A DNA stretch of 51,336 nt from an uncultured Bacilli bacterium (GCA_947623995.1 CANQIN010000002.1:1-51336); one strand, 5' to 3'; positions 10,653 through 50,237 are shown, numbered from the stretch's first letter. The notes: generated from the sequence alone by a model not told the origin. Numbers and translations are program-made.

Positions 10653-10685
10653 ATTATAACTCTTAAACCCCCCCCCCTGTGTCAA
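10653..10685 (-). promoter_or_regulatory. Switch promoter P1: TTGACA-CA-G10-TTTAAGAGT-TATAAT (21-nt spacer)
   Basis: -35 at 10685-10680; plus-strand C10 at 10668-10677; -10 at 10658-10653. A conserved leader AGAATAGGTGATTTT precedes the ATG at 10629. Confidence 0.7.
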
Positions 10686-10693
10686 CTATTTTC

Positions 10694-10722
10694 TTGCATT
10701 TTTTTATTATTTTTGCTATGAT
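10694..10722 (+). promoter_or_regulatory. Divergent plus-strand promoter (candidate sRNA promoter)
   Basis: TTGCAT (10694-10699), 17 nt, TGc-TATGAT (10717-10722, extended -10). It lies 8 bp from the -35 of P1. Confidence 0.6.
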
Positions 10723-10728
10723 GTATAT

Positions 10729-10850
10729 AGATGAAGGAAACTTCATACAATAAAAAAGAGATATATCTTGAATCGTTCAGATGTAATCCCAAAGTTTTGG
10801 TTATGCATCCGAAATCAACATATGTTGAAATCAGATGCTTTTGTTTTTTA
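10729..10850 (+). ncRNA. Candidate ~120-nt antisense sRNA convergent with the 33-aa peptide ORF
   Basis: It sits between the promoter at 10694-10722 and an intrinsic terminator, GCATCCGAAATCAACATATGTTGAAATCAGATGC (10805-10838) plus TTTTGTTTTTT. A 5' hairpin ATGAAG-GAAA-CTTCAT occupies 10731-10746. The only ORF from its 5' end runs through the terminator, so it is probably non-coding. Confidence 0.4.
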
Positions 10851-10949: not shown

Positions 10950-11027
10950 GTAATCACCGCCTTGCATTTTTAATAGTTAAAAATAAAAGGGGAAAACATC
11001 TGATCAACTCTCAATGTATCCAATATA

Positions 11028-11056
11028 ATTGTAACAAACTTTATTTTATAAAACAA
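11028..11056 (-). promoter_or_regulatory. Promoter of the 33-aa peptide transcript
   Basis: TTGTTT (11056-11051), 17 nt, TGt-TACAAT (11033-11028). The homologous element is at 13039-13067. Confidence 0.5.
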
Positions 11057-11085
11057 TATTTATGACATTTTGCCACACTTATAAA

Positions 11086-11172
11086 TTTAATTTTTTAAAT
11101 AGAAATATCTGATAATAAATGTTGTTTCATTACCTTTAGAATCTACCATAATAGTTCCTTTACTTTTTAGGT
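11086..11172 (-). pseudogene. Orphan copy of the 3' end of the histidine kinase gene (duplication scar)
   Basis: Translates as KSKGTIMVDSKGNETTFIIRYFYLKN*, compared with the true HK C-terminus SNGTIMVDSKDNETTFIIRYFY* at 13104-13190. No upstream HK sequence is present. Confidence 0.65.
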
Positions 11173-12642: not shown

Positions 12643-12674
12643 ATTATAACCCTTAACCCCCCCCCCTATGTCAA
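12643..12674 (-). promoter_or_regulatory. Switch promoter P2: TTGACA-TA-G10-TTAAGGGT-TATAAT (20-nt spacer)
   Basis: -35 at 12674-12669; plus-strand C10 at 12657-12666; -10 at 12648-12643. Leader AGAATAGAGTGATAAA precedes the ATG at 12619. Confidence 0.7.
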
Positions 12675-12682
12675 CTATTTTC

Positions 12683-12711
12683 TTGCATTTTTTTATTATT
12701 TTTGCTATGAT
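12683..12711 (+). promoter_or_regulatory. Divergent plus-strand promoter (second copy)
   Basis: TTGCAT (12683-12688), 17 nt, TGc-TATGAT (12706-12711). It lies 8 bp from the -35 of P2. Confidence 0.6.
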
Positions 12712-12717
12712 GTATAC

Positions 12718-12856
12718 AGATGAAGGAAACTTCATATAATAAAAAAGAGATATATCTAATTATTCGTGTAATTGGATACTCTCCAAAAAAGTTTTTGTTT
12801 TTTTTGAAAAAGCCCTTTTAACACAAATGAGTGAAAAGGTGCTTTTTCTTTTTATT
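12718..12856 (+). ncRNA. Candidate ~140-nt antisense sRNA, second copy
   Basis: The first ~45 nt match the 10729 copy (the ATGAAG-GAAA-CTTCAT hairpin), then the sequences diverge. The terminator AGCCCTTTTAACAC..GTGAAAAGGTGCT (12811-12843) plus TTTTTCTTTTT ends 5 nt before the convergent peptide stop codon. Confidence 0.4.
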
Positions 12857-12962: not shown

Positions 12963-13038
12963 AAACATCCTCCTTTCCATAATAATTTAATTATATATGG
13001 TGGAGAGCACCTAACACTTAATTAGATATATCATTATA

Positions 13039-13067
13039 ATTATAGCAAACTTTATTTTATAAAACAA
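13039..13067 (-). promoter_or_regulatory. Promoter of the second 33-aa peptide transcript
   Basis: TTGTTT (13067-13062), 17 nt, TGc-TATAAT (13044-13039). Confidence 0.5.
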
Positions 13068-13103
13068 TATTTATGCATTTTACCACATTTATAAATTTAT
13101 TTT

Positions 13104-14306
13104 TTAATAAAAATATCTGATAATAAACGTTGTTTCATTATCTTTAGAATCTACCATAATAGTTCCATTGCTTTTTAATATAATAGCTTTTGCTAAAGAA
13201 AGCCCTATTCCTATACTTTCTTTTAAAGAAGAATCATAATGATAAAATCTTTCAAATAAATGTTTTTTATCTTCACTACTTAAAACTTTTCCATAATTAG
13301 TTATCTTAACTTCACTATAAAGATTATTTTCTTCTAAATTAATTAATACTTCACTTTTCTTTTTAGAATGTTCAATAGCATTTTTTAAAATATTAGTAAT
13401 TGCTTCTACATTCCAATCTTTATCACAATTAATAGTTGTTTTATTTTTTCCTTTTACAATAATTTTAATATCTTTTAAATCACATAAAGAAGAAACATTT
13501 AAAATTGCTTTATTAATAATGGTAATTAAATTATGAGGTTCACTTTTAAATTCAATCATATTAACTTCTAATTTTGATAATTTTAATAAATTAGTTATTA
13601 AAAATTTCATATTATTTATTTCTCTTTTAATACTTCTTAAAGCTTCTTCTTTTTTAATATCAAGATTTTCTTCATCAAGTATATTATCAACAGTAATTAA
13701 TATGGCTGTTAAAGGAGTTTTTAATTGATGAGTTATATTTTCTAATGATTCTTTTAATTCTAATTTATCTTTTTTAGAATTAATAGCTGTTTCTTTTAAC
13801 ATAACGGTTGTCTTATAAATTTCATCTCTTAATTTAGATAATTCATCTTCACTCATACTTTCTAATTTTAAAGAATAATTCTGATTATTAAGTTCTTTTA
13901 AATAATTAGTTATTTCATTTAATTCTTTATTTCTTTTTCTAAAATATAATCTAAATAAATATATAATAATTAATAAACTTAAAAAGATAAAAGCAAAATT
14001 TAAATAATTAAAATAATTTTTTAAAGAATTATTTTTTAAAATTACTGATTCTTCATTAATATCAATACTATACTTTTTTAAAAATTCTTCATTAAAATTA
14101 TTAGAATTTAAGATGTTAATAAGTTCATTATCTTCAATATGATATTTTTCTTTTACATTATTTATAATACTAACAATTGCTAAATTATAATTTTTAGTTA
14201 AGCTTTTATTTTCTAATGATATTAAAACAACTAAAGTAACACTTAGAGTAAGACTAACAATTAAACTTAAAAGATAATATTTTTTTAATTTAAGATTATT
14301 CTTCAT
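13104..14306 (-). CDS. Sensor histidine kinase (two TM helices, HisKA plus HATPase_c)
   Basis: H-box ITHQLKTPLTAI, N-box NILKNAIEHS and G-box-like GIGLSLAKAI. It overlaps the response regulator gene by 11 nt. Confidence 0.85.
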   Translation of the reverse strand: MKNNLKLKKYYLLSLIVSLTLSVTLVVLISLENKSLTKNYNLAIVSIINNVKEKYHIEDNELINILNSNNFNEEFLKKYSIDINEESVILKNNSLKNYFNYLNFAFIFLSLLIIIYLFRLYFRKRNKELNEITNYLKELNNQNYSLKLESMSEDELSKLRDEIYKTTVMLKETAINSKKDKLELKESLENITHQLKTPLTAILITVDNILDEENLDIKKEEALRSIKREINNMKFLITNLLKLSKLEVNMIEFKSEPHNLITIINKAILNVSSLCDLKDIKIIVKGKNKTTINCDKDWNVEAITNILKNAIEHSKKKSEVLINLEENNLYSEVKITNYGKVLSSEDKKHLFERFYHYDSSLKESIGIGLSLAKAIILKSNGTIMVDSKDNETTFIIRYFY

Positions 14307-21681: not shown

Positions 21682-21742
21682 TATTTAATTATTATTTTAA
21701 ACCACTTTTAACTATAATTTTTTTAAGAAAATTATTATTCAT

Positions 21743-24208: not shown

Positions 24209-25465
24209 TTAATTTTCTTCAACTAATTCAATATCTGCCCCAACACTTTTTAATTTTAAAACTATATCAGAATATCCTCTTAATATGTATTCGGCATTTT
24301 TAATAGTTGTTTTACCACTAGCATAAAGCCCCGCTAAAATAAGGGATGCTCCTGCTCTTAAATCAGTAGCTTTAATATTAGCTCCATTAAGTTTAGTTTG
24401 ACCAGTAATAATGGTTGTACTACCATTTATTTTTATTTTAGCATTCATTTTATTTAATTCAGAAACATGACCCATTCTGCTAGAATAAATGGTTTCTTCA
24501 ATAAAACTTGTTCCCCAACATTGAGTTAATAAGGTTGTCATTGGTTGGGCAAGGTCAGTTGGAAATCCTGGATATGGTAATGTTTTAATGTTTATAGGTT
24601 TATAACTAGGTTTACAATTTACTTCTAAACCATTTTTCACTCTTAATATATTAACACCCATATCTTTTAATTTACTAAGTAAAGCTTTTAAATGTTCTTC
24701 AATCAAGTTATCCACAACAAAATTTTTACCTAACATAGCCCCAAGAATTAAATAGGTTCCAGCTTCAATACGATCTGGAATAACTTCAACAATAGCATGA
24801 TGAAGATGATTTACTCCTTCTATTTTAATACTACTAGTTCCAGCCCCAGTAATTTTAGCACCCATATTGTTTAAAAATGTTGCAACATTAACAATTTCCG
24901 GTTCTTTAGCAGCATTGTTAATAATCGTTACCCCTTCAGCTTTTACAGCAGCAAGCATAATATTAATGGTCGCTCCAACACTAGCAATATCTAAATATAT
25001 TTCAGCACCAGTTAATTTATCAGCTGTAATTAAAAAATAATTATCTTTAGTTTCAATTTTAGCTCCTAAACTTTCAAAGCCTTTAAAATGTAAATCAATC
25101 TTTCTTTCACCAAAGTCACATCCCCCAGGAAAGGCTATCTCTACTTTTCGATTCTTGCCAAGTAAAGCTCCCATGAAATAATAAGAGCCTCGTAGTTTAG
25201 AACATAATTCTTCCCCAATTAATTTATTTTCTAAATTACTAGCATCAACACTTATTTCATCTTCTTTATAGGTAGTTTTAACATTTAACAAATTTAAAAT
25301 ATCAATTAAAGCATACGTATCTGAAATATTAGGTACATTATAAATAGTTGCAATTTCATCACATAAAATAGCGGCCGGTAAAAGAGCCACAGCACTATTC
25401 TTAGCACCAGATACGTGAATTGTTCCAGATAAGGTTTTTCCTCCATTAATGATAATCTTTTTCAA
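24209..25465 (-). CDS. murA: UDP-N-acetylglucosamine 1-carboxyvinyltransferase
   Basis: KKIIINGGKTLSGTIHVSGAKNSAVALLPAAIL, with full-length similarity pattern to MurA. The start was set at the TTG at 25465 behind an AAGGTGGG SD; the track ORF's 32-aa extension is not MurA-like. Confidence 0.9.
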   Translation of the reverse strand: MKKIIINGGKTLSGTIHVSGAKNSAVALLPAAILCDEIATIYNVPNISDTYALIDILNLLNVKTTYKEDEISVDASNLENKLIGEELCSKLRGSYYFMGALLGKNRKVEIAFPGGCDFGERKIDLHFKGFESLGAKIETKDNYFLITADKLTGAEIYLDIASVGATINIMLAAVKAEGVTIINNAAKEPEIVNVATFLNNMGAKITGAGTSSIKIEGVNHLHHAIVEVIPDRIEAGTYLILGAMLGKNFVVDNLIEEHLKALLSKLKDMGVNILRVKNGLEVNCKPSYKPINIKTLPYPGFPTDLAQPMTTLLTQCWGTSFIEETIYSSRMGHVSELNKMNAKIKINGSTTIITGQTKLNGANIKATDLRAGASLILAGLYASGKTTIKNAEYILRGYSDIVLKLKSVGADIELVEEN

Positions 25466-25547
25466 ACAAAACACCCACCTTGCATATAATATACCAAATT
25501 TTACCCTATTTTTAAAGGCTTCTTTATTATTGTTGACATTAAATAGT

Positions 25548-25581
25548 AAAAGAAAAAGCATAATCTATAAATAGTTTATGC
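25548..25581 (-). terminator. Intrinsic terminator after paralog 25599-26945
   Basis: Minus strand GCATAA-12 nt-TTATGC followed by TTTTTCTTTT. Confidence 0.5.
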
Positions 25582-25598
25582 AAGATTTTTTTTAAAAT

Positions 25599-26945
25599 TC
25601 AAAATGTTAATCGAAAAGGATTATCTATTGAACCGTAATTATCACTTTCATCTGATTCAATATAGACTTTATTATTTAAATATACAGTTGGTAAAATATT
25701 TGCTTCCTGATTTACATCACCCCAATAAATACCACTCATAGTAGAACTTATAGCAGTTTTATTAGAATTATCAAAATGAGTAGTTAAAAACCAATGACTA
25801 TCAGTATACAACCAATTAATATTTTCAATTGTATAACATGTACTATCAAAATCTAGTAATTTTTTTTCTAAGCAAGTTTCTCTATCATTTGCAACTGCAT
25901 AGCCATAATCTGATGGATAAATTAACCCAACTCCATTATGATATTTTGAATCATTTTCTCTGGTCCATACACTTGGATAGCCACTTTCTTTTACTGAAAC
26001 ACTTCTTTCTTTTTCATACATCGTTGGTGCATTATATATATCATTTGGTTCACCCAAATTCCATATAACATCTTTATCAATCATCAGCCTTGCTTCTTCA
26101 TTTAATCCTTTTGAATTTATATTATCTTGAGTAAAATCACATTCTGTTGGAATAGGATTATTTACATCTTGATAGCAATCACCAATCTCACTATTATAAT
26201 ATATGCCATTTAACATATCTTTTAAAGTTGAAGTTGTCCAATCATTATTATATGTAGATTTATAATCCCAACTATAATATCCTAAATCATCCATAAAGTG
26301 AAAATCTTCATTTTCATCAGTCCAAAATACATTTGAAATTCTTGTTAATTTTACTCTTTGTTCTATTCCACTATCAGTTTGAACGTTTACGAGTCCAATA
26401 ATTCTCCATATTTCATCATTAAATGCTATATAATTATTAGGATCTTCTCCAGCATATCGATATTCTATTTTATTCCAGCCACTATCTATTTCAGTAACAC
26501 TATGATCTACTTTATACAATCCATCACCAGTCTCTACAATAGGAATATCTCTATTTAATTGAAAACCAGTTTGTTCTTTAAAATATAAGCTACACTTTGT
26601 CTTTACTTTTTTTAATCCTTTTACTAATGGGGCCCATTCATTGTTGTTCCATTCAATACTTGCTCCATTATCACATTCACCATGGTCAAATACTAAATTA
26701 TCTGGATTATCTTTTACTGGCATCGTATCTAACTGTTCATCACCTTTATAGAATGCAAAATAAATATCGCTATTACCAAAATAATCAACTTTTCCTTTCA
26801 TCATTGGAAATTCTGCACTTTCCGTAAAACTTGCAAAGGTTTTATATAGAAGTAATGAGACACTTATTAAGACTATTACACTTATACTTATCAATATTGT
26901 TTTTCTTCTTTTCTTACTTTTATCTTCATATTTTTTTAGCTTCAT
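25599..26945 (-). CDS. Paralog family member, class-I N-module with type-b C-module
   Basis: N-terminus ..YKTFASFTESAEFPMMKGKVDYFGNSDIYFAFYKGDEQLDTMP..GECDNGASIEWNNNEWAPLVKGLKKVKTKCSLYF. C-module motifs EYRYAGEDPNNYIAFNDEIWRIIGLVNV, LKDMLNGIYYNSEIGDCY, GLIYPSDYGYA, PTVYL and DNPFRLTF. Confidence 0.85.
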   Translation of the reverse strand: MKLKKYEDKSKKRRKTILISISVIVLISVSLLLYKTFASFTESAEFPMMKGKVDYFGNSDIYFAFYKGDEQLDTMPVKDNPDNLVFDHGECDNGASIEWNNNEWAPLVKGLKKVKTKCSLYFKEQTGFQLNRDIPIVETGDGLYKVDHSVTEIDSGWNKIEYRYAGEDPNNYIAFNDEIWRIIGLVNVQTDSGIEQRVKLTRISNVFWTDENEDFHFMDDLGYYSWDYKSTYNNDWTTSTLKDMLNGIYYNSEIGDCYQDVNNPIPTECDFTQDNINSKGLNEEARLMIDKDVIWNLGEPNDIYNAPTMYEKERSVSVKESGYPSVWTRENDSKYHNGVGLIYPSDYGYAVANDRETCLEKKLLDFDSTCYTIENINWLYTDSHWFLTTHFDNSNKTAISSTMSGIYWGDVNQEANILPTVYLNNKVYIESDESDNYGSIDNPFRLTF

Positions 26946-26967
26946 ATAATCACCTATTCTTAGGTAA

Positions 26968-26998
26968 ATTATAGCATTTACCCCCCCCCCTATGTCAA
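26968..26998 (-). promoter_or_regulatory. Switch promoter P4: TTGACA-TA-G10-TAAATGC-TATAAT (19-nt spacer)
   Basis: -35 at 26998-26993; plus-strand C10 at 26981-26990; -10 at 26973-26968. The ATG is at 26945. Confidence 0.7.
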
Positions 26999-27001
26999 GA
27001 G

Positions 27002-27191
27002 GAGGCTGCTGAAAAAGTGTACATTTTTTGTAAAATTAAAATTCTGAAAAAATCAAATCCCAATTTTTAATTAAATATGTATTAAAAATGGGGAACAACA
27101 TTTGAAATTTGTACATTTTTGCATATTAAGTGGGAGATAAAAAAATAGAAATTTTGATTTTTTGAAATTTTTGGACTTTTTCAGCAGCTTC
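27002..27191. mobile_element. 190-bp MITE-like element inserted at the -35 box of P4
   Basis: Terminal inverted repeats are GAGGCTGCTGAAAAAGT (27002-27018) and ACTTTTTCAGCAGCTTC (27175-27191), 16/17 complementary. The element is flanked by a 9-bp direct repeat TGTCAAGAG (26993-27001 and 27192-27200). It has no ORF. Confidence 0.6.
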
Positions 27192-27230
27192 TGTCAAGAG
27201 ATTTAAGCATGTTATCATTTTTTAGGCAAA

Positions 27231-27253
27231 GAAAAAAGCGATTTCTCGCTTTT
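27231..27253 (-). terminator. Intrinsic terminator of the str operon (after tuf)
   Basis: Minus strand AAAGCGA-GAAA-TCGCTTT followed by a T-run. Confidence 0.7.
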
Positions 27254-27254
27254 A

Positions 27255-28421
27255 TTAGGCATCAATTGATGATACTACACCAGCACCAACAGTACGTCCA
27301 CCTTCACGAATTGAGAATTTAGTACCATTTTCAAGTGCTACAGGCGCAATTAATTCAACAGTCATGTCAACATTATCACCAGGCATAACCATTTCAGTAC
27401 CTTCAGGTAACTCGATAACACCAGTTACGTCTGTAGTACGGAAATAAAATTGTGGACGATAATTTGAGAAGAATGGAGTATGACGTCCGCCTTCTTCTTT
27501 AGTTAAGACATAAACGCTAGCTTTAAATTTGTGATGAGGAACAATACTTCCTGGTTTAGCAAGAACTTGTCCACGTTCAACTTCATCACGAGCGATACCA
27601 CGAAGTAATACACCAGCATTATCACCAGCTTGAGCATAGTCTAGAGATTTTCTAAACATTTCAATACCAGTAACAACTGTCTTCTTAGTATCTTTTAAAC
27701 CAACGATTTCAACTTCGTCATTTAATTTTAATTGTCCACGTTCAACACGTCCAGTAACAACTGTACCACGTCCAGAAATTGTAAATACATCTTCAATACT
27801 CATTAAGAATGGTTTGTCAGTATCTCTTTCTGGTGAAGGAATATATTCGTCAACAGCTTTCATTAAATCTCTAATAGATTGTTCAGCTTCAGGATCTCCT
27901 TCAATAGCTTTAAGAGCAGATCCACGGATAATAGGACATTCAGTATCGAATTCATATTCTCCTAATAATTCACGAATTTCCATTTCTACTAAGTCAAGTA
28001 ATTCAGGATCATCAACTTGGTCACATTTATTCATGTAAACAACAATTTTAGGAACTCCAACTTGACGAGATAGTAAAATATGTTCTCTTGTTTGAGGCAT
28101 AGGACCATCTGCAGCAGACACTACTAAGATTGCTCCATCCATTTGAGCAGCTCCAGTAATCATGTTTTTAACATAGTCAGCATGTCCTGGGCAGTCAACG
28201 TGAGCATAATGACGTTTTTCAGTTTCATACTCAACGTGAGCAGTATTAATAGTAATACCTCTTTCTCTTTCTTCTGGTGCTTTGTCGATATCTGCATATT
28301 CAACATATTTACCAAATAATTTTGTAATAGCAGCTGTTAATGTTGTTTTACCATGGTCAACGTGTCCAATAGTACCAATATTAACATGTTCTTTTGAACG
28401 GTCAAATTTTTCTTTTGCCAT
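27255..28421 (-). CDS. tuf: Elongation factor Tu
   Basis: [18 protein letters not shown] and NKCD motifs; full-length EF-Tu similarity pattern. Confidence 0.97.
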
Positions 28422-34652: not shown

Positions 34653-34735
34653 CATTTAAATTATTATTTTAAACCACTTTTTATGTTTATACTATAAATT
34701 TTCTTTTTTTGAAAATTATTATTCATAAAAAAATC

Positions 34736-36328
34736 GGCTCTAAATAATTTAGTGGGGAGCAAAATTTCATTAAAGCATTATAAAATAAGGGTTTGTCCCT
34801 TATTTTTTGCATTCAAAAAAATTTTATGTTTTTTGAATGCTAATAACACTTATTTTTCTATTTTTTTGATTTCTTTCTTTTTTGGTAATTCCACTTATTT
34901 TTCCATTCATAATATACATAATTCTTAATCTAAAAAAATGAAAATTTTTATATCCAAATCCTATTCTTTTTATGACTTTTATTTTATTATTGATGCCTTC
35001 TGTATAACCATTTGAAAACCTTTTATCTATAAATGAATTAACTATATAGGGTAACCAATTTTCTATTGTTTTTGCTGCTTCTTTCATTTCTTCTATTCCA
35101 TAATTTTGTACTGTACTTATCCATTCTTTTAATTCACTTTCTGCATATTCATAAGTTGTTGTATGTAATACATCAAAAAATAATTCTTTTAATAAATATC
35201 CCTTTTGTAATTCTTCATTTATTGCTAGTATCTCTTCTCTTAAATCATACTTTAATATATCTACCATATGTCCATTTTTATATCTTTTGGTATATGTATA
35301 CCAGTCGACTTCATTGCTATATTTTCTGAGTAATGTTACATTTTTTTTATTTTTTAACATTCTGTATTCTTTTGTATTATATCCATAATTTTTTTGTAAT
35401 TTGATTCTTATTTTATCTAGCGCATCCATTACATATCGTGTATAATGAAATCTATCTACTACATATTTAGCTTTGGGAAACATTATTTGCTGTACGAGTA
35501 GATATGGTTCGTACATATCACTTATGACGAACTCCACTGAATGTCTATTTTCAGTATATGTAAAATACTGAATCAGATATTCTTTTTTTCTATTTGGTAA
35601 TATATCTAATACTTTTCTATGAATTGGATCATTGATAATAAATGCATATTTTCCTTCTTTCGTGTCTGCTTTAAATTCGTCAAATGATATAACTCTTGGT
35701 AAATTCTTTATATGCTCTGGATATTTACTCATTGCATTCTCTAATATATTTCTTATCGTTCCTGCTGATACATTATTACTTTCTGCTATATATTTTAAAG
35801 ATAAATTGTAATTCATTAAATCTTTTAATATTTTTTGTTCTAATTTAGTGGATATTGATTTTCCTTTTTCATTTAATGATAATTCTTCTGTAAATCTTTT
35901 ATTACATTTATGACATATAAACCTTTTCTTTACTATATTTATTGTAGTTTCTTGCTCCATTATTTTTAAATATTTAATTTCTATGGGTTTTAATTTATCA
36001 TGTATGCTTTTTGTATATTCTCCACATTTTGGGCATTTATCTTTTTTCTTTTTACTTTCTACATATATTATTTTTTTCACTTTTTTATTTTCCTCTCTTT
36101 CTTCTATTTTTATTATTTTGTATTCTTCTAACTTTAACAATTTTTCAATTTCATTCATTCTTTTTCACCTCCAATTCCTTATTAAAAAATTGCTCATTTA
36201 TTATACAATAAAAAAAGAAGATAACATTTCTATTATCTCCCCACTAGACTGTCTAGCTTTCTTGATAAAACTCCCCACTAGATTTTCTTAACTGGAATTT
36301 TTATCTCCCCACTAAATTATCTAGAACC
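34736..36328 (-). mobile_element. ISL3-family insertion sequence (1593 bp) with an 8-bp target duplication
   Basis: The inverted repeats are GGCTCTAAATAATTTAGTGGGGAG (34736-34759) and the complement of 36305-36328 (GGTTCTAGATAATTTAGTGGGGAG), matching 22/24. The target duplication AAAAAATC is at 34728-34735 and 36329-36336. An uninterrupted homologous site is present at 21737-21760. Three CTCCCCACTA subterminal repeats sit in 34-bp phase (36237, 36271, 36305). Confidence 0.9.
34824..36158 (-). CDS. ISL3-family transposase
   Basis: N-terminal zinc-finger pairs CPKCG..CHKC, a DDE region including the DRFH motif, 444 aa. Confidence 0.9.
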   Translation of the reverse strand: MNEIEKLLKLEEYKIIKIEEREENKKVKKIIYVESKKKKDKCPKCGEYTKSIHDKLKPIEIKYLKIMEQETTINIVKKRFICHKCNKRFTEELSLNEKGKSISTKLEQKILKDLMNYNLSLKYIAESNNVSAGTIRNILENAMSKYPEHIKNLPRVISFDEFKADTKEGKYAFIINDPIHRKVLDILPNRKKEYLIQYFTYTENRHSVEFVISDMYEPYLLVQQIMFPKAKYVVDRFHYTRYVMDALDKIRIKLQKNYGYNTKEYRMLKNKKNVTLLRKYSNEVDWYTYTKRYKNGHMVDILKYDLREEILAINEELQKGYLLKELFFDVLHTTTYEYAESELKEWISTVQNYGIEEMKEAAKTIENWLPYIVNSFIDKRFSNGYTEGINNKIKVIKRIGFGYKNFHFFRLRIMYIMNGKISGITKKERNQKNRKISVISIQKT

Positions 36329-36371: not shown

Positions 36372-37955
36372 TTATCCTAAAATAAAAGGATTATCTATAC
36401 TTCCATATTCTTTTTCAGGATTGGGATTTTCTAATATTTTAACAGTTGATTTTAAATAAGCTACTGGTTTAACATCATAACCATTTAAAGCTCCATGCGT
36501 AATTATCCGTGTTTCATATAGATGATATACATCTAGTGCCGAGTTGTTTAATGGTGTAAGGGTCCAATTATATTCAGAAGTTATTCGTAACCAATTATTG
36601 TTATTGCAATCCTCATCATATGCATCCAAATTTTTTTGAAGACAGTTATTTCTTGCTTCTCCTCCTACCGCATAACCAAAATCTGAGGGATACAGCAAAG
36701 CAATATATCCATCCCATGCTGTAGTTCTTTCTACTTCATCATTGCAAAACGTTCCATATTCACATTGCTTACTTTTATTTTTACTTCTCTCACCATTATA
36801 CATGTAATCAGCAGTCTTATTTCCATTAGGTGTACCAAGGTTCCATTTAACTTTTGATATAAGAGTTTTTGCCTTATCACTCAACCCACTATTAGTAAAA
36901 TCACATTTTTTATTTTCATTATTTATCCAAAAAAAACATTCTCCATCTTTTTGATTCCAAAATAAACTATTATTAGCTTTAATTTCTTCACCAACATTAT
37001 TTGTTTCCATATTATCGTCATATCCAGGATTTAATAATTTCATTAAGTCTGCTTGGCTCCATTCATTTATTCCATATCCATAGTTTATTGTTTGTATGCT
37101 ACTATCCCAGCTATAGATTCCAATACTATCTGCTCTTATTATTTTTACTAAACTTTCTTGCTTTTCAATATCATCTAAACTTGTGATGTTATTCATAACA
37201 CCGATTACTCGCCATAATATTGGTTGTCCTTCACCATCTCTATCTCCTATATCTATATAGTTATTTGGCTCTGCTCCAATATATCTTAAATTATTATCTT
37301 TGGTATTATCATATGCTAAATTTGTTTCTTCGGTTTTGGCTATTTCTTCTATATAATCACTTGCTACTTGTTCACCTATTTTTCCTTCAACCACTATTTT
37401 TGATTTTGCTATTTCATTTTCTATTCCACTTTCTTTTGTTACTTCTTCTTTTATCCATAATCTTAACTCATAGTTTACACTTTCTAATTTTCTTAATCTT
37501 CCTTCTGTTAATTGACGACTTTCTTTTGCTTCACTTATTTTTGGTATTTCATTTTCAGGATATTTACTTAATATTTTAGGTTCTGTTTCTGTTTCTTCTT
37601 TATTTAATAATACTTTTATATTTTCACTATTTAATGTTGTTTCATTTAACATTTCTAAATTTATACTATAATCTACATAATTTTCACATTCATTACGGAT
37701 TGTAAATTTATATGGCTCTAGAATTTTTCCTTCTACATCTGTTTTTGGAAATGTATTTGTTAAACTTATGTTATCTTCTTTATTTGTTAATTCTATATCT
37801 AAACAACTTGTACTTAAGATATTTTCATTTGTTTGTTCTTTTGTTATTACCCACAAAGCATAACTTACTCCTATGGTTATTAATAGTAATACTATTAATA
37901 CAATAGTTATTATTTTAATTTTATTTTTTGGTTTTTCATAACTTTCTAAATTCAC
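36372..37955 (-). CDS. Paralog family member, class-II N-module with type-a-derived C-module
   Basis: Residues ~30-300 are near-identical to 21786-23363 (SYALWVITKEQTNEN... through ..LVKIIRAD), after which the sequences diverge. A GTG start at 37955 or 37964 follows a class-I type GAGTGAT leader. Confidence 0.8.
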   Translation of the reverse strand: MNLESYEKPKNKIKIITIVLIVLLLITIGVSYALWVITKEQTNENILSTSCLDIELTNKEDNISLTNTFPKTDVEGKILEPYKFTIRNECENYVDYSINLEMLNETTLNSENIKVLLNKEETETEPKILSKYPENEIPKISEAKESRQLTEGRLRKLESVNYELRLWIKEEVTKESGIENEIAKSKIVVEGKIGEQVASDYIEEIAKTEETNLAYDNTKDNNLRYIGAEPNNYIDIGDRDGEGQPILWRVIGVMNNITSLDDIEKQESLVKIIRADSIGIYSWDSSIQTINYGYGINEWSQADLMKLLNPGYDDNMETNNVGEEIKANNSLFWNQKDGECFFWINNENKKCDFTNSGLSDKAKTLISKVKWNLGTPNGNKTADYMYNGERSKNKSKQCEYGTFCNDEVERTTAWDGYIALLYPSDFGYAVGGEARNNCLQKNLDAYDEDCNNNNWLRITSEYNWTLTPLNNSALDVYHLYETRIITHGALNGYDVKPVAYLKSTVKILENPNPEKEYGSIDNPFILG

Positions 37956-37981
37956 TATTATCACTCAATTCTATAATTTAT

Positions 37982-38001
37982 ATTATAGCTCATAACGTCA
38001 A
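37982..38001 (-). promoter_or_regulatory. Switch-promoter homolog lacking the G tract (TTGACG-8 nt-TATAAT)
   Basis: Minus strand TTGACG TTATGAGC TATAAT aligns with P3 (TTGACA CA-G10-TTATGGGT TATAAT) once CA+G10 is removed. The leader AGAATTGAGTGATAAT is retained. Confidence 0.35.
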
Positions 38002-38041
38002 GATATTCACATCATTTTAAACCACTTTTTTATTATAAATT

Positions 38042-44687: not shown

Positions 44688-44879
44688 AAGACAAAATAAA
44701 TATCACTATTACTAAAATAATCTACTTTGCCATTCATCATTGGAAATGAAACATTCTCAGAAAAGGAAGCAAAGGTTTTATAAAGTAAAAAAGAAACTTA
44801 TTAACACAATTACACTTATGCTTATTAATATTATTTTTCTTCTTTTACTTTCTTTATCAACATACTTTTCTAGTTTCAT
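44688..44879 (-). pseudogene. 5' remnant of a class-I paralog (frameshifted, truncated after ~60 codons)
   Basis: It translates from 44879 as MKLEKYVDKESKRRKIILISISVIVLISFFFTL*. A shifted frame continues ..FPMMNGKVDYFSNSDIYFVF, then homology ends near 44688. Confidence 0.7.
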
Positions 44880-44901
44880 TATAATCATCCATTCTACTAT
44901 G

Positions 44902-44932
44902 ATTATAGCTCTTGACCTATCCTCCATGTCAA
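44902..44932 (-). promoter_or_regulatory. Switch-promoter homolog with a degenerated tract (TTGACA-TGGAGGATAGG..-TATAAT, 19-nt spacer)
   Basis: -35 at 44932-44927 and -10 at 44907-44902. The position of the G10 is occupied by GGAGGATAGG. The upstream flank matches P5. Confidence 0.5.
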
Positions 44933-45112
44933 GTTTGAAAATATTATTTTAAACCACTTGCTATATTTGTAATTTATGCAATATACTTTAAAATATCATG
45001 TAATCTAATTTTAATTTACTTACTGATACTTTTTAATAACACTTAATTTATATGTCTACTTTCAAAAAGGGCAAACTCAAAGTTAAGATAATAGTTTTGT
45101 ATTTATTTACCC

Positions 45113-46739: not shown

Positions 46740-48365
46740 TTAAGATTCTAAGATAAATGGATTATCTATTGTTCCATTTCCATTTATTATTTTAACATTT
46801 GATTTTAAATATAAGGTAGGCCAAACTCCAAAAGCATAATCTATACTTCCTGTATGGCTTACATATCCAGAAGAAAAAATGTTGTATGATCTTCCAGAAT
46901 GAGAAGAATTTGAGGTCAAAAGCCACTGATAATCTTTATTTGGTTTTAGCCAATCATTTAAGGAACAACTTTCAGTATAATAGTCATATATATTCAAGTT
47001 TAAACAAGTTTTTCTGACATTACCACCAACGGCATAGCCGTAATCTGAAGGATATATTAGACCAATACCATTGTGATAATTAGAATCATTTTCTTTAGTC
47101 CATTCGTTTGGATATTCTTGATTATAAACAGCTGTTCCACGTTCATTAATGTATATATTTTTGGAATTTATCCCAACACTATTATAACCTCCCAAACTCC
47201 AGATTATTTCATTATCTATCATTTCTCTAAAGTTTAAATCTATGCCTTTTGGCAAATCTGTTTCAGATCCGCTAAAATTACATGTGTTTTTATTTCCAAT
47301 TTCATTTTGAGCAGTATAACAATCTCCAATTCCGCTTTCATAATATATACCATTTAACATATTTTTTAAACTCGATTTTACCCAATTATTTTCAATAACT
47401 TCTTTTCCATAATCCCAACTGTAATTTCCAAAATCTTTTTGACCAGCTATTCCATCTTGTCTTATTATTTTTAAATGACTACCAGTTATTTCACTTCCAT
47501 CTTCTTGTTCGCTTCTTAAATTGTTCATGACTCCAATAATCCGCCATTTTTCTCCATTAAATGATACATAATTATTTGGATTAGACCCAATATATCTTAA
47601 ATTATTATCATCGGTTCCTAATTCTTCTCCTAAACTTTCTTTTCCATCATAGGCTAAATTTATTGTATCTAAATTTGCATTTTCTTTCATACATGTTACA
47701 GCATCTTTTCCTTCTGCTCCACACTTTGCTACTGCACTTCCATATACTTCTCCTATATCATTACTTTCTGTTGCTGCATTTATTACATTGATACTTGCTT
47801 CAAATGTTTGTCCTTCTACTTCATTTCCAGCAATGTCATCTATCCATAAATATAAATTGTAGGTTACTTCTTCTCCATTATTTACTACTCCATCAACTTT
47901 TGTTCCTCCACTTAATACTCCTGTGTCTAATATATATGATGTCCCTAAATTCTCTACCATTAAATTTTCTAAATCAGTATTTATTCTACTTAATTTACTT
48001 CCAACATTTGGTTTTTCTTCACTACTTTTATATAAAGCATATTTTATTTTACTTGCATCTAAGGTATTTGTACTTAATGTATTTAATGTTAAGACATAAT
48101 TATTATTAATAGTACAGGTATTTGTTATGGTAAATGTATAAGGATTTGTACTTAATCCTATACTATCATTTACTGGATACGTATTATCTAATTTTATACT
48201 TTCACTTTGCTCACTAAATCCTATACTAAAACATCCTACATCCATCTCATTTTCATTTGTTTGTTCTTCGGTTATTATCCACAAAGCATATGATTGGGTT
48301 ATATATAAACATCCCACTAACATTAATCCAATTATTAATAATGATAATTTATATCTTACTTTCAT
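46740..48365 (-). CDS. Paralog family member, class-II (group 2) N-module with type-b C-module
   Basis: ATG at 48365 (MKVRYKL..). The N-terminal ~275 aa are shared with the other group-2 copies. C-module motifs NNYVSFNGEKWRIIGVMNN, LKNMLNGIYYESGIGDCY, GLIYPSDYGYAVGG, WPTLYLKS and DNPFILES. Confidence 0.85.
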   Translation of the reverse strand: MKVRYKLSLLIIGLMLVGCLYITQSYALWIITEEQTNENEMDVGCFSIGFSEQSESIKLDNTYPVNDSIGLSTNPYTFTITNTCTINNNYVLTLNTLSTNTLDASKIKYALYKSSEEKPNVGSKLSRINTDLENLMVENLGTSYILDTGVLSGGTKVDGVVNNGEEVTYNLYLWIDDIAGNEVEGQTFEASINVINAATESNDIGEVYGSAVAKCGAEGKDAVTCMKENANLDTINLAYDGKESLGEELGTDDNNLRYIGSNPNNYVSFNGEKWRIIGVMNNLRSEQEDGSEITGSHLKIIRQDGIAGQKDFGNYSWDYGKEVIENNWVKSSLKNMLNGIYYESGIGDCYTAQNEIGNKNTCNFSGSETDLPKGIDLNFREMIDNEIIWSLGGYNSVGINSKNIYINERGTAVYNQEYPNEWTKENDSNYHNGIGLIYPSDYGYAVGGNVRKTCLNLNIYDYYTESCSLNDWLKPNKDYQWLLTSNSSHSGRSYNIFSSGYVSHTGSIDYAFGVWPTLYLKSNVKIINGNGTIDNPFILES

Positions 48366-48395
48366 ATTACCAATCCCTATTCTTAAGTTATTTAA

Positions 48396-48424
48396 AGTAT
48401 ACAATAATTTAACATTTTTAGCAA
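48396..48424 (-). promoter_or_regulatory. Tract-free promoter of 46740-48365
   Basis: TTGCTA (48424-48419), 17 nt, TATACT (48401-48396). Confidence 0.55.
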
Positions 48425-48552: not shown

Positions 48553-48578
48553 AAAAAAAACTTAACAATTAAGTTAAG
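48553..48578 (-). terminator. AT-rich intrinsic terminator overlapping the stop codon of 48574-50178
   Basis: Minus strand CTTAAC-TTAATT-GTTAAG followed by T8. Confidence 0.5.
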
Positions 48579-50178
48579 CTTCTAAGATAAATGGATTATC
48601 CTCTGTTCCATTTCCATTTATTATTTTTATATTATTAATAAGATAAACTACAGGTGCTACTGAACCAGAATCTATATGAGATGTAGCATAACCCATTACA
48701 CCATTATCTCCTGGAGCCAATATCCTATTTACTTTATTTTCATTTGGAATAGATGCTGTTATAGTCCAATACCAACTACTTGATGGTTTTAACCAATCAT
48801 CATAACCGCATTTTTCAGTATAGTACAAACTCATATAATTATTTATGCATAAATTTCTCATACTTTTACCAACGGCATAACCATAATCTGATGGATACAT
48901 TAAACCAATTCCATTGTAAAATTCATTGTCTATCTCTTTAGACCATTCACTTTTATTTTGATTATTATTTCCTGTTTGAATTCCTCGTTCCTTTTTATAA
49001 ATTTCAGCTGGTACAACATCAGTTGTGTCGACGCCTCCAACATTCCATACTAAATTTGTATCTATCATGCTTCTTGAATTACTGTTTATACCTTTTACTA
49101 GCCCACTTTCTTGTGTAAAATCGCAAGTTGTAGGTTCACTAATACTTGTGGTATAACATTCACCGCTTGTACTATTATAATATATTCCATTTAACATATC
49201 TTTTAATGCGGATATTGTCCAATCATTTGATGATTTATTATCCCAATAGTATTTTTCTAAATTTTCTTGGCCAGAAATTCCATTAGTTCTAATTATTTTC
49301 AAACGTTCTACTTTTTCTCCATTTTCATTTTTTACTTTCATGACTCCAATAATCCGCCATTTTTCTCCATTAAATAATACATAATTATTTGGATTTGCAC
49401 CAATATATCTTAAATTATTATCATCGGTTCCTAATTCTTCTCCTAAACTTTCTTTTCCATCATATGCTAGGTTTATTGTATCTAAATTTGCATTTTCTTT
49501 CATACAGGTTACGGCATCTTTTCCTTCTGCTCCACACTTTGCTACTGCATTTCCATATACTTCTCCTATATCATTACTTTCTGTTGCTGCATTTATTACA
49601 TTAATACTTGCTTCAAATGTTTGGCCTTCTACTTCATTTCCAGCAATGTCATCTATCCATAAATATAAATTGTAGGTTACTTCTTCTCCATTATTTACTA
49701 CTCCATCAACTTTTGTTCCTCCACTTAATACTCCTGTGTCTAATATATATGATGTCCCTAAATTCTCTACCATTAAATTTTCTAAATCAGTATTTATTCT
49801 ACTTAATTTACTTCCAACATTTGGTTTTTCTTCACTACTTTTATATAAAGCATATTTTATTTTACTTGCATCTAAGGTATTTGTACTTAATGTATTTAAT
49901 GTTAAGACATAATTATTATTAATAGTACAGGTATTTGTTATGGTAAATGTATAAGGATTTGTACTTAATCCTATACTATCATTTACTGGATACGTATTAT
50001 CTAATTTTATACTTTCACTTTGCTCACTAAATCCTATACTAAAACATCCTACATCCATCTCATTTTCATTTGTTTGTTCTTCGGTTATTATCCACAAAGC
50101 ATATGATTGGGTTATATATAAACATCCCACTAACATTAATCCAATTATTAATAATGATAATTTATATCTTACTTTCAT
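48574..50178 (-). CDS. Paralog family member, class-II (group 2) N-module with a type-b variant C-module
   Basis: Same N-terminal half. C-module motifs NNYVLFNGEKWRIIGVMKV, LKDMLNGIYYNSTSGECY, GLMYPSDYGYAVG, PVVYL and DNPFILEA. Confidence 0.85.
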   Translation of the reverse strand: MKVRYKLSLLIIGLMLVGCLYITQSYALWIITEEQTNENEMDVGCFSIGFSEQSESIKLDNTYPVNDSIGLSTNPYTFTITNTCTINNNYVLTLNTLSTNTLDASKIKYALYKSSEEKPNVGSKLSRINTDLENLMVENLGTSYILDTGVLSGGTKVDGVVNNGEEVTYNLYLWIDDIAGNEVEGQTFEASINVINAATESNDIGEVYGNAVAKCGAEGKDAVTCMKENANLDTINLAYDGKESLGEELGTDDNNLRYIGANPNNYVLFNGEKWRIIGVMKVKNENGEKVERLKIIRTNGISGQENLEKYYWDNKSSNDWTISALKDMLNGIYYNSTSGECYTTSISEPTTCDFTQESGLVKGINSNSRSMIDTNLVWNVGGVDTTDVVPAEIYKKERGIQTGNNNQNKSEWSKEIDNEFYNGIGLMYPSDYGYAVGKSMRNLCINNYMSLYYTEKCGYDDWLKPSSSWYWTITASIPNENKVNRILAPGDNGVMGYATSHIDSGSVAPVVYLINNIKIINGNGTEDNPFILEA

Positions 50179-50208
50179 ATTACCAATCCCTATTCTTAAG
50201 TTATTTAA

Positions 50209-50237
50209 AGTATACAATAATTTAACATTTTTAGCAA
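50209..50237 (-). promoter_or_regulatory. Tract-free promoter of 48574-50178
   Basis: TTGCTA (50237-50232), 17 nt, TATACT (50214-50209). It is identical to 48396-48424. Confidence 0.55.

Follow-up and report, generated by a model that had tools for sequence, protein, structure and literature searches.

A G10 tract in the promoter spacer of a predicted surface-protein gene from an uncultured Bacilli bacterium: a probable member of a family of slippage-tuned promoters

Does a run of ten G residues, lodged between the two boxes of an otherwise consensus promoter, act as a length-dependent switch, and how near does the promoter that carries it stand to an ON configuration? This question is raised by P4, a promoter located in a stretch of 51,336 nucleotides from an uncultured Bacilli bacterium, which is referred to here, at its whole length, as the window. 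Homopolymer switches in promoter spacers are textbook knowledge for a few pathogens, belonging to Neisseria, Haemophilus, Mycoplasma and Bordetella. On the minus strand, positions 26998 to 26968 read TTGACA-TA-G10-TAAATGC-TATAAT, with a spacer of 19 nt, upstream of the gene at 25599-26945, and the layout given by the initial annotation was exact in this respect (Table 1). The promoter, of the sigma-70 type, belongs to a paralogous gene family and has the G tract in its spacer, and the leader that follows it runs to the ATG at 26945 of an open reading frame of 448 aa. A homopolymer between recognisable -35 and -10 boxes, upstream of a gene, is the layout of simple-sequence-repeat phase-variable promoters. 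In effect, P4 would be a new copy, in its organism and gene family, of a well-known type of slippage-prone promoter switch. Moreover, a TG dinucleotide at 26976-26975 (-15/-14) provides P4 with an extended -10 element, TGcTATAAT, and no other copy in the window has it. Both this element and the position of the promoter directly downstream of the tuf terminator had been missed in the initial annotation.

Table 1. Features of the P4 region, its sister promoters and a recurrent upstream motif (window coordinates)
Feature	Position	Strand	Remarks
P4-driven gene, 448 aa	25599..26945	-	one of 12 paralogs in the window
Leader TTACCTAAGAATAGGTGATTAT, 22 nt	26946..26967	-	contains inverted repeat TTACCTA/TAGGTGA
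Shine-Dalgarno AGGTGA	26955-26950	-	overlapped by the 3' arm of the leader inverted repeat
-10 hexamer TATAAT	26968..26973	-	perfect consensus
Fixed distal spacer part TAAATGC	26974..26980	-	7 nt, versus 8 nt in 38 of 47 family promoters
G10 homopolymeric tract	26981..26990	-	C10 on the plus strand; putative slippage-prone element in the spacer
TA between -35 and tract	26992-26991	-	
-35 hexamer TTGACA	26993..26998	-	perfect consensus; equals the 3' six bases of the proximal target-site duplication
Proximal 9-bp direct repeat CTCTTGACA	26993..27001	-	target-site duplication
MITE-like insertion, 190 bp	27002..27191	.	terminal inverted repeats and target duplication
Distal 9-bp direct repeat CTCTTGACA	27192..27200	-	orphan duplicate of the -35 box
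Displaced native upstream module AAAAATGATAACATGC	27207..27222	-	now 200 bp away
Terminator-like hairpin of tuf	27234..27253	-	sole barrier upstream of P4; possible read-through source
Sister promoter P1	10653..10685	-	G10, 21-nt spacer
Sister promoter P2	12643..12674	-	G10, 20-nt spacer
Sister promoter P3	21650..21681	-	G10, 20-nt spacer
Sister promoter P5	33039..33071	-	G10, 21-nt spacer
Sister promoter P6	34621..34652	-	G10, 20-nt spacer
AAGTGGTTTAAAATAAT motif	21691-21707; 34663-34679; 38011-38027; 44943-44959		

Long G/C runs are found in the window in a single context, and far more often there than chance would give. At a GC content of 26%, the 51-kb sequence contains no G/C runs longer than 5 nt apart from six C10 runs on the plus strand, each located in the same minus-strand promoter context, and the pattern TTGACA-NN-G7 occurs six times against 0.16 expected by shuffling. 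The spacers of P1 to P6 measure 21, 20, 20, 19, 21 and 20 nt, respectively. P4 has the shortest of the six, as the initial annotation implied in calling it the copy closest to a putative ON configuration; the accompanying description of the others as 21-nt-spacer copies is correct for two sisters and incorrect for three, which have 20 nt.

The same design is conserved among relatives. A scan of genome collections revealed 424 stretches encoding relatives, of which 80 loci were kept. Almost all of these loci come from rabbit-gut ('Lapin') MAGs labelled 'uncultured Bacilli', the exceptions being two Bacilli MAGs (BRZ series), one 'uncultured Tenericutes' MAG and Candidatus Ventrenecus avicola. 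From these 80 loci, representing about 20 MAG species, and from the window, 49 promoters were scored, and the 47 with a good -10 box constitute the counted set. Their common layout begins with TTGAC[A/T/C/G] and, in most cases, 2 nt; the G tract comes next, and a TATAAT-like hexamer, usually 8 nt behind the tract, precedes the ATG of a family gene by about 22 nt. In 32 promoters the tract is G10, in 12 it is G9, in one G11 and in two G12, while the non-G part of the spacer measures 10 nt in 38 of the 47. Total spacers are 20 nt (29 promoters), 19 nt (10), 21 nt (6) or 14 nt (2) long, and a TG extended -10 is present in 22. P4 alone among the 47 combines G10 with 9 non-G nucleotides, and its 19-nt spacer equals the G9 state of the canonical copies.

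Further conserved elements surround these promoters. The motif AAGTGGTTTAAAATAAT is located 9-10 nt upstream of the -35 box in many family promoters, in the window (Table 1) as well as in relatives (L008, L023, L025, L052, L057, L067, L076, L077, L155-L165), and could serve as an UP element or a regulator site; it is missing from P4, P1 and P2, where different modules take its place. An inverted repeat between the -10 box and the start codon, with its 3' arm over the Shine-Dalgarno sequence, is present in P4 (26950-26967), P2, P3 and P6, and at the same position in many of the examined promoters of L004-L094. Its arms co-vary between copies, as in TACCTA/TAGGTG, TACTCTA/TAGAGTG, CATTCTAT/ATAGAGTG and CACTATA/TATGGTG. 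An RNA hairpin in the 5'-UTR was disfavoured as an explanation of this repeat, since a start about 7 nt past the -10 box would leave most of the 5' arm untranscribed; candidates for what the repeat may be are an RNA hairpin, a DNA structure or an operator.

The P4-driven gene belongs to a family whose members are difficult to recognize by sequence. Twelve of the open reading frames in the window are paralogs at 27-72% identity. Six of them, of about 445 aa, have G10 promoters (one of the six is a 572-aa chimera), and others, of about 520-555 aa, have ordinary promoters, for instance TTGCTA-17 nt-TATACT. Scans of the P4 product and its paralogs against Pfam and NCBIfam gave nothing significant; Pfam DUF6273 remained below threshold, with weak matches (E 0.05 or weaker) in 3 of 92 family members and none for the P4 product, and a PDB sequence search with the P4 product returned only spurious 14-3-3 matches (E above 0.03). 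A large protein database contains 645 unnamed homologs, and the closest full-length relatives are at most 57% identical, which indicates that the family evolves fast. In the family alignment, the N-terminus is strongly conserved, the cysteines are conserved and the middle is variable.

Structural comparison was more informative. The AlphaFold2 model, built with 92 sequences (pLDDT 86), comprises a transmembrane helix at the N-terminus (residues 9-39), followed by a disordered linker (40-57) and a cysteine-rich globular domain. In Foldseek searches, the sole significant structural neighbour in the PDB is the IgA protease of Thomasclavelia ramosa (9qa6, E 1e-4), and matches in BFVD are ten proteins (E 6e-6 to 4e-4), five of which are named DUF6273 proteins; among viral proteins, the nearest in structure are DUF6273 proteins, tail fibres and receptor-binding proteins. 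The N-terminal domain of the T. ramosa protease was described as an expanded C-type-lectin-like domain (PMC12237041) and as DUF6273 (PMC12402451). Proteins of this DUF6273/C-type-lectin-like type, to which the T. ramosa enzyme and the phage 'tentaclins' belong, are the best fold match of the P4 product, with the difference that the enzyme has a protease domain and the P4 product does not. As modelled, the ectodomain of the P4 product adopts a DUF6273/expanded C-type-lectin-like fold, the similarity being structural only, and the protein is predicted to be a surface-exposed, ligand-binding one.

Within the same family, the tandem paralogs at 46740-48404 and 48574-50217 (about 550 aa, 72% identical) have near-identical upstream regions of about 250 bp, with the canonical TTGCTA-17 nt-TATACT promoter and without a G tract, so that part of the family is apparently not switch-controlled. 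Another observation concerns P1 and P2, whose cassettes, together with about 490 bp upstream, are 92-97% identical in the best-matching blocks (one block 80%), including 10666-10768 versus 12655-12757 and 11021-11142 versus 13032-13150. The proteins of P1 and P2 are only 41% identical, the non-coding 5' region being far better conserved than the coding one. This contrast points to gene conversion in the cassette, or else to strong diversifying selection acting on the protein.

The window also carries rpsL, rpsG, fusA, tuf and murA, and the host is a small-genome, low-GC, Mollicutes-like member of Bacilli. The P4 gene is located between tuf and murA (24209-27255), all on the same strand, 310 nt downstream of tuf, and no terminator was predicted between its stop (25599) and murA. 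A gene for a variable surface protein may in this way sit within a housekeeping transcription context. The extended -10 element and read-through from tuf could render P4 expression independent of the tract, and the loss of the adjacent upstream module could lower it.

That loss is due to an insertion. The initial annotation had placed a MITE-like element next to the -35 box and held it responsible for the displacement of native upstream DNA; its coordinates proved exact, and both the terminal inverted repeats and the 9-bp duplication are present. The terminal repeats, GA[A/G]GCTGCTGAAAAAGT at 27002-27018 and 27175-27191, are 17 nt long with one mismatch, and the arms can be extended to 42 nt at 76% complementarity; the ends of the element read GAAGCTGCTGAAAAAGT and, on the opposite side, ACTTTTTCAGCAGCCTC. 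The element has the structure of a MITE, as it is short and non-coding and has terminal inverted repeats and a target-site duplication, and it is a single copy in the searched loci. The target duplication CTCTTGACA contains the -35 hexamer, and so the core promoter was left intact. In the G10 promoters of L081 and L047, the AAAAATGATAACATGC module lies directly upstream of the -35 box, which supports a simple insertion into a pre-existing promoter. An empty-site ortholog of P4 was not found, as the module-bearing loci L081 and L047 do not lie behind tuf (non-syntenic).

No second copy of the 190-bp element was detected by blastn in the window and L001-L154, where partial matches comprised a 47-nt end in L021 and 31 nt in L062. 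In L021, which represents another species, a related terminal repeat abuts the -35 box of a G10 promoter, beside transposase remnants; judging from this arrangement, a target preference for the promoter site is hinted at. As in other IS and MITE insertions at promoters, the target duplication preserves the -35 sequence (TTGACA), with the difference that the P4 element duplicates the resident -35 box and brings none of its own. A separate mobile element in the window is a complete ISL3-family insertion sequence at 34736-36328 (transposase ORF 34824-36158, Pfam DDE_Tnp_ISL3, E 9e-58), with 29-nt inverted repeats beginning GGCTCT, located about 85 bp upstream of P6, just past its upstream module.

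The length of the tract was compared between consensus assemblies from different samples that encode exactly the same protein. At P4, it is G10 in all four assemblies of the strain, namely the window and three further ENA assemblies with an identical P4 protein. Two of these three share 14-21 kb with the window and are about 99.86% identical to it there, differing by 21-24 substitutions and by no tract change; both have G10 at P1-P3 as well, and one also has it at P5 and P6. All six window tracts are G10 at the consensus level (2-4 assemblies each), as are all seven promoters known from this genome when L094 is included. A fixed tract length had been named in advance as the observation that would speak against a switch at P4, and this is what consensus sequences display there, in four assemblies of four.

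Related tracts do vary between samples, and at three loci G9 versus G10 is the sole difference. The P0068 locus has G10 in five samples and G9 in two, and L086 (G10) differs from L090 (G9) by 0 mismatches and 1 gap over 2421 bp. Similarly, the P0025 locus is G9 in L155 and G10 in L156-158, and the P0035 locus is G9 in L160 and G10 in L159, L161 and L162, with 0 mismatches and one gap over 1.6-1.9 kb in the G9/G10 pairs. The P0071 locus, which has two promoters, is G10 throughout. A single-G indel is the fastest-changing site at three of the eleven loci compared, and the sole change seen between assemblies is that between G10 and G9 (20 and 19 nt). Additionally, near-identical paralogous promoters carry G9, G10 and G11 (L078, L072). 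At 6-20x Illumina coverage, homopolymer error could in principle contribute to a G9 versus G10 consensus; the G9 calls are locus-specific rather than sample-wide (in the sample ERZ27249337, two loci are G9 and another two are G10), which argues against a library artefact. A number of contigs of relatives start or stop at or in the G tract (L047:5, L068:1, L078:10, L083:1 and 2823, L046:8873, L062:7846, L093), which fits read-level length heterogeneity or repeat-induced assembly breaks at the conserved cassette.

In some lineages, the tract occupies the coding region. In Lapin-022__bin17, the promoter is without a tract and a G run lies inside the region coding for the membrane anchor (signal anchor), in the context MRIDKFKEKNNKKKL...VMCA-Gn-YLINRSY, whose two halves are in frame only at n = 9 or 12. 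Nine of its ten genes have G10 (out of frame) and one has G9 (in frame). In L020 and L081, tracts near residue 80 leave one gene in frame (G10) and three out of frame (G9, G11, G11). The loci with a tract inside the open reading frame, mainly from Lapin-022__bin17, are L056, L058, L061, L062, L065, L071, L073, L074, L079 and L046. Judged by these comparisons, the switch appears to have moved from transcriptional to translational control within one gene family among lineages. A tract shifted between promoter and open reading frame, with mostly OFF states, is the signature of contingency loci, and the tracts also follow the general pattern of such loci in being over-represented, confined to one gene class and located, when homologs are included, at both transcriptional and translational positions.

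Two copies in the window illustrate what happens to the tract otherwise. In a decayed copy at 44700-44960 (minus strand), a 5' pseudogene fragment (about 44700-44880) has kept its promoter with a tract decayed to GGAGGATAGG: the AAGTGGTTTAAAATAAT module is followed by TTGACA-T-GGAGGATAGG-TCAAGAGC-TATAAT, with four substitutions in the 10-nt tract and a 19-nt spacer, and behind it lies a frameshifted 5' fragment of a family gene (MKLEKYVDKESKRRK...). Upstream of the intact open reading frame at 36372-37964 (530 aa), the region 37965-38030 (minus strand) contains a collapsed tract, TTGACG-TTATGAGC-TATAAT, with 8 nt between the boxes; the upstream module AAGTGGTTTAAAATAAT and the -35 and -10 boxes are still present. 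Decay in the pseudogene and collapse at 36372-37964 suggest that intact tracts are maintained only where the gene is in use, and, as far as these sequences indicate, a dead gene seems to lose its tract by erosion.

For the family as a whole, the sequences give good support to a slippage-based phase-variation system, and P4 is probably one copy of a conserved sigma-A-type contingency promoter with a slippage-tuned spacer. In such a system, slipped-strand mispairing during replication would add or remove one G in the tract, which would alter the distance and rotation between the -35 and -10 boxes and, consequently, the firing of RNA polymerase. Each paralog of the membrane-anchored surface-protein family would be switched independently and reversibly, and the G10 state of all six copies would most likely be low or OFF. 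P4 would stand apart by a fixed spacer part that is 1 nt shorter (G10 giving 19 nt), by its extended -10 element and by the 190-bp insertion at the -35 box, and it would be the copy likeliest to be active in transcription, be it already or after a single slippage step. We infer that transcription depends on tract length and that, in the population, P4's own tract is variable.

Some features of P4 could be read differently, namely as those of a promoter that is no longer a switch and has been hard-wired into quasi-constitutive expression by its shorter spacer, the extended -10 element and read-through from the upstream, highly expressed rpsL-rpsG-fusA-tuf operon. P4 is the sole promoter of the 47 with G10 plus 9 non-G nucleotides, it has TG at -15/-14, and extended -10 promoters need little from the -35 box, as established for Firmicutes. 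Only one short hairpin terminator separates the gene from tuf, which lies 310 nt upstream in the same orientation, murA follows closely on the 3' side on the same strand with no predicted terminator, and the tract is invariant in four assemblies. This reading is nevertheless rather unlikely, as 22 of the 47 promoters have TG yet keep the tract and the G9/G10 polymorphism (for instance L159 and L160, with TGcTATAAT), and the G10 of P4 is perfectly kept as opposed to the decayed tract in the pseudogene copy. Lower still is the probability that the G10 block is a fixed cis-element or regulator site which offsets an over-long spacer of 19-21 nt in a MerR-like manner, with G9 and G11 as neutral noise. 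Spacers of 19-21 nt are typical of activator-dependent promoters (MerR family); G10 is modal everywhere (32 of 47) and present in all seven promoters of this genome, including L094; and the conserved module AAGTGGTTTAAAATAAT stands at a fixed distance from many such promoters. Against this, tract indels are the sole differences between otherwise identical assemblies at three loci, and tracts also occur inside coding regions, where only a frameshift role is sensible. Moreover, G10 is non-palindromic, unlike MerR operators, and G/C runs of at least 9 are intrinsically unstable, as established in Campylobacter, Neisseria and Haemophilus.

It is extremely improbable that the G10 runs are sequencing or assembly artefacts, such as poly-G calls of two-colour Illumina chemistry. 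Contigs of relatives do begin or end at the tract (L047, L068, L078, L083, L046, L062), a place where assemblers struggle, but the tracts sit mid-contig between unique flanks, recur at one position of a conserved promoter across several projects and dozens of independent assemblies, and are always on the sense strand of the gene, and those in coding regions keep a reading-frame logic. On these grounds, an artefact was rejected.

With the slippage-tuned promoter as the preferred reading, the length that corresponds to ON deserves separate attention. The initial annotation assumed an ON spacing of 17-18 nt, within reach of P4 by the loss of one or two G; in the present comparison, this spacing was equated with G8 or G7 for P4. 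None of the 47 family promoters has a 17- or 18-nt spacer, and all but two have 19-21 nt, so the assumption finds no counterpart within the family. It is reasonable by the sigma-70 rule, and canonical 17-nt promoters exist in this genome; every copy would then be OFF in most cells, which is plausible for a family of dozens of genes expressed few at a time. Another possibility is that ON is the G9 or 19-nt state, the only alternative observed, in parallel with G9 being in frame in the lineage with coding tracts. P4 ranks first among the window copies under either assumption, provided that shorter is better between 19 and 21 nt. If ON is 19 nt, P4 may already have the ON-equivalent spacing instead of being one or two steps away from it. 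A specific version, of low probability, is a two-state toggle between G10 and G9 at 20 versus 19 nt, with P4 hard-wired in a 'G9-equivalent' ON spacing by a 1-nt deletion in its fixed spacer. If this were true, the poly(dG)-poly(dC) spacer would alter promoter geometry (for instance as an A-like, shorter, under-wound helix) or an unknown factor would read the tract, and the P4 gene, alone among the paralogs, would be expressed in most cells of the strain. In one respect only does the family depart from the standard model: a 17-18-nt state is missing.

Comparison with established systems helps to place the P4 family. In Mycoplasma hyorhinis, each gene of the vlp family of variable surface proteins has a poly-A tract in the spacer between the -35 and -10 boxes. 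The P4 family is likewise multigene, located in a low-GC, host-associated, small genome of Bacilli/Mollicutes type, with its own homopolymer-spacer promoter for each gene; in both, the promoter and the N-terminus are highly conserved and the ectodomains divergent, and combinatorial switching is expected. The vlp genes have poly-A and encode lipoproteins with tandem repeats, whereas the P4 family has poly-G and encodes proteins that are transmembrane-anchored and DUF6273/C-type-lectin-like; in addition, the spacers observed in the P4 family, read from sequence only, are 19-21 nt and never 17 nt. In Neisseria meningitidis, the promoters of porA (poly-G), opc and fetA (both poly-C) are phase-variable. 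There, too, a G/C homopolymer lies between the -35 and -10 boxes, and a 1-nt change tunes the transcription of a surface protein. The meningococcal loci are single genes with tract lengths centred on the 17-nt optimum and with graded expression, whereas the P4 family comprises dozens of genes, and its modal state lies 3 nt beyond the optimum.

The general picture of poly-G contingency loci in Campylobacter (PMC8355987) provides another parallel. Campylobacter jejuni is also low in GC, with G/C runs of 8-12 that are essentially its only long G/C homopolymers and mark surface-structure genes; intragenic and intergenic tracts both occur, and G9 and G10 are the commonest. Most of its tracts are intragenic, whereas the window copies all lie in promoter spacers, and it is sister lineages that have the coding version; the two systems also differ in phylum and in gene family. 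In comparison with known systems, what is unusual in the P4 family is the 19-21-nt spacer and the relocation of the tract, which lies in the promoter in some lineages and in the coding region in others.

In uncultured Bacilli with small genomes from the rabbit gut, the device would control a large and undescribed family of surface proteins of lectin-like type, providing a natural system for studying surface variation in gut bacteria, with IgA, phages and host glycans as possible pressures and with tract states that can be traced directly in metagenomic reads. The added value of P4 itself is modest: it indicates that a 1-nt change in the fixed spacer, together with a mobile element at the -35 box, can re-tune one member of the family. 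A literature search on RF39-type, Mollicutes-like gut bacteria brought up no earlier account of poly-G promoter switches in them.

A scan of metagenome contigs with TTGACWTAGGGGGGN{1,16}TATAAT found no family member and returned mostly unrelated chance matches in high-GC sequence; it also revealed analogous promoters in other low-GC gut contigs. These poly-G spacer promoters, TTGACATA-Gn-...-TATAAT, are located in low-GC contigs of other metagenomes, several of them from the human gut. They include L104 and L149 with G16 (spacer 18 nt in L104), L136, L143 and L148 with G9, G11 and G9 (spacers 16, 18 and 16 nt), L122 and L128 with G10 (20 nt), and L107 with G9 (20 nt). Where open reading frames behind them could be called, they encode unrelated proteins with an N-terminal signal or anchor. 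The poly-G spacer device may be widespread in small-genome gut Bacilli.
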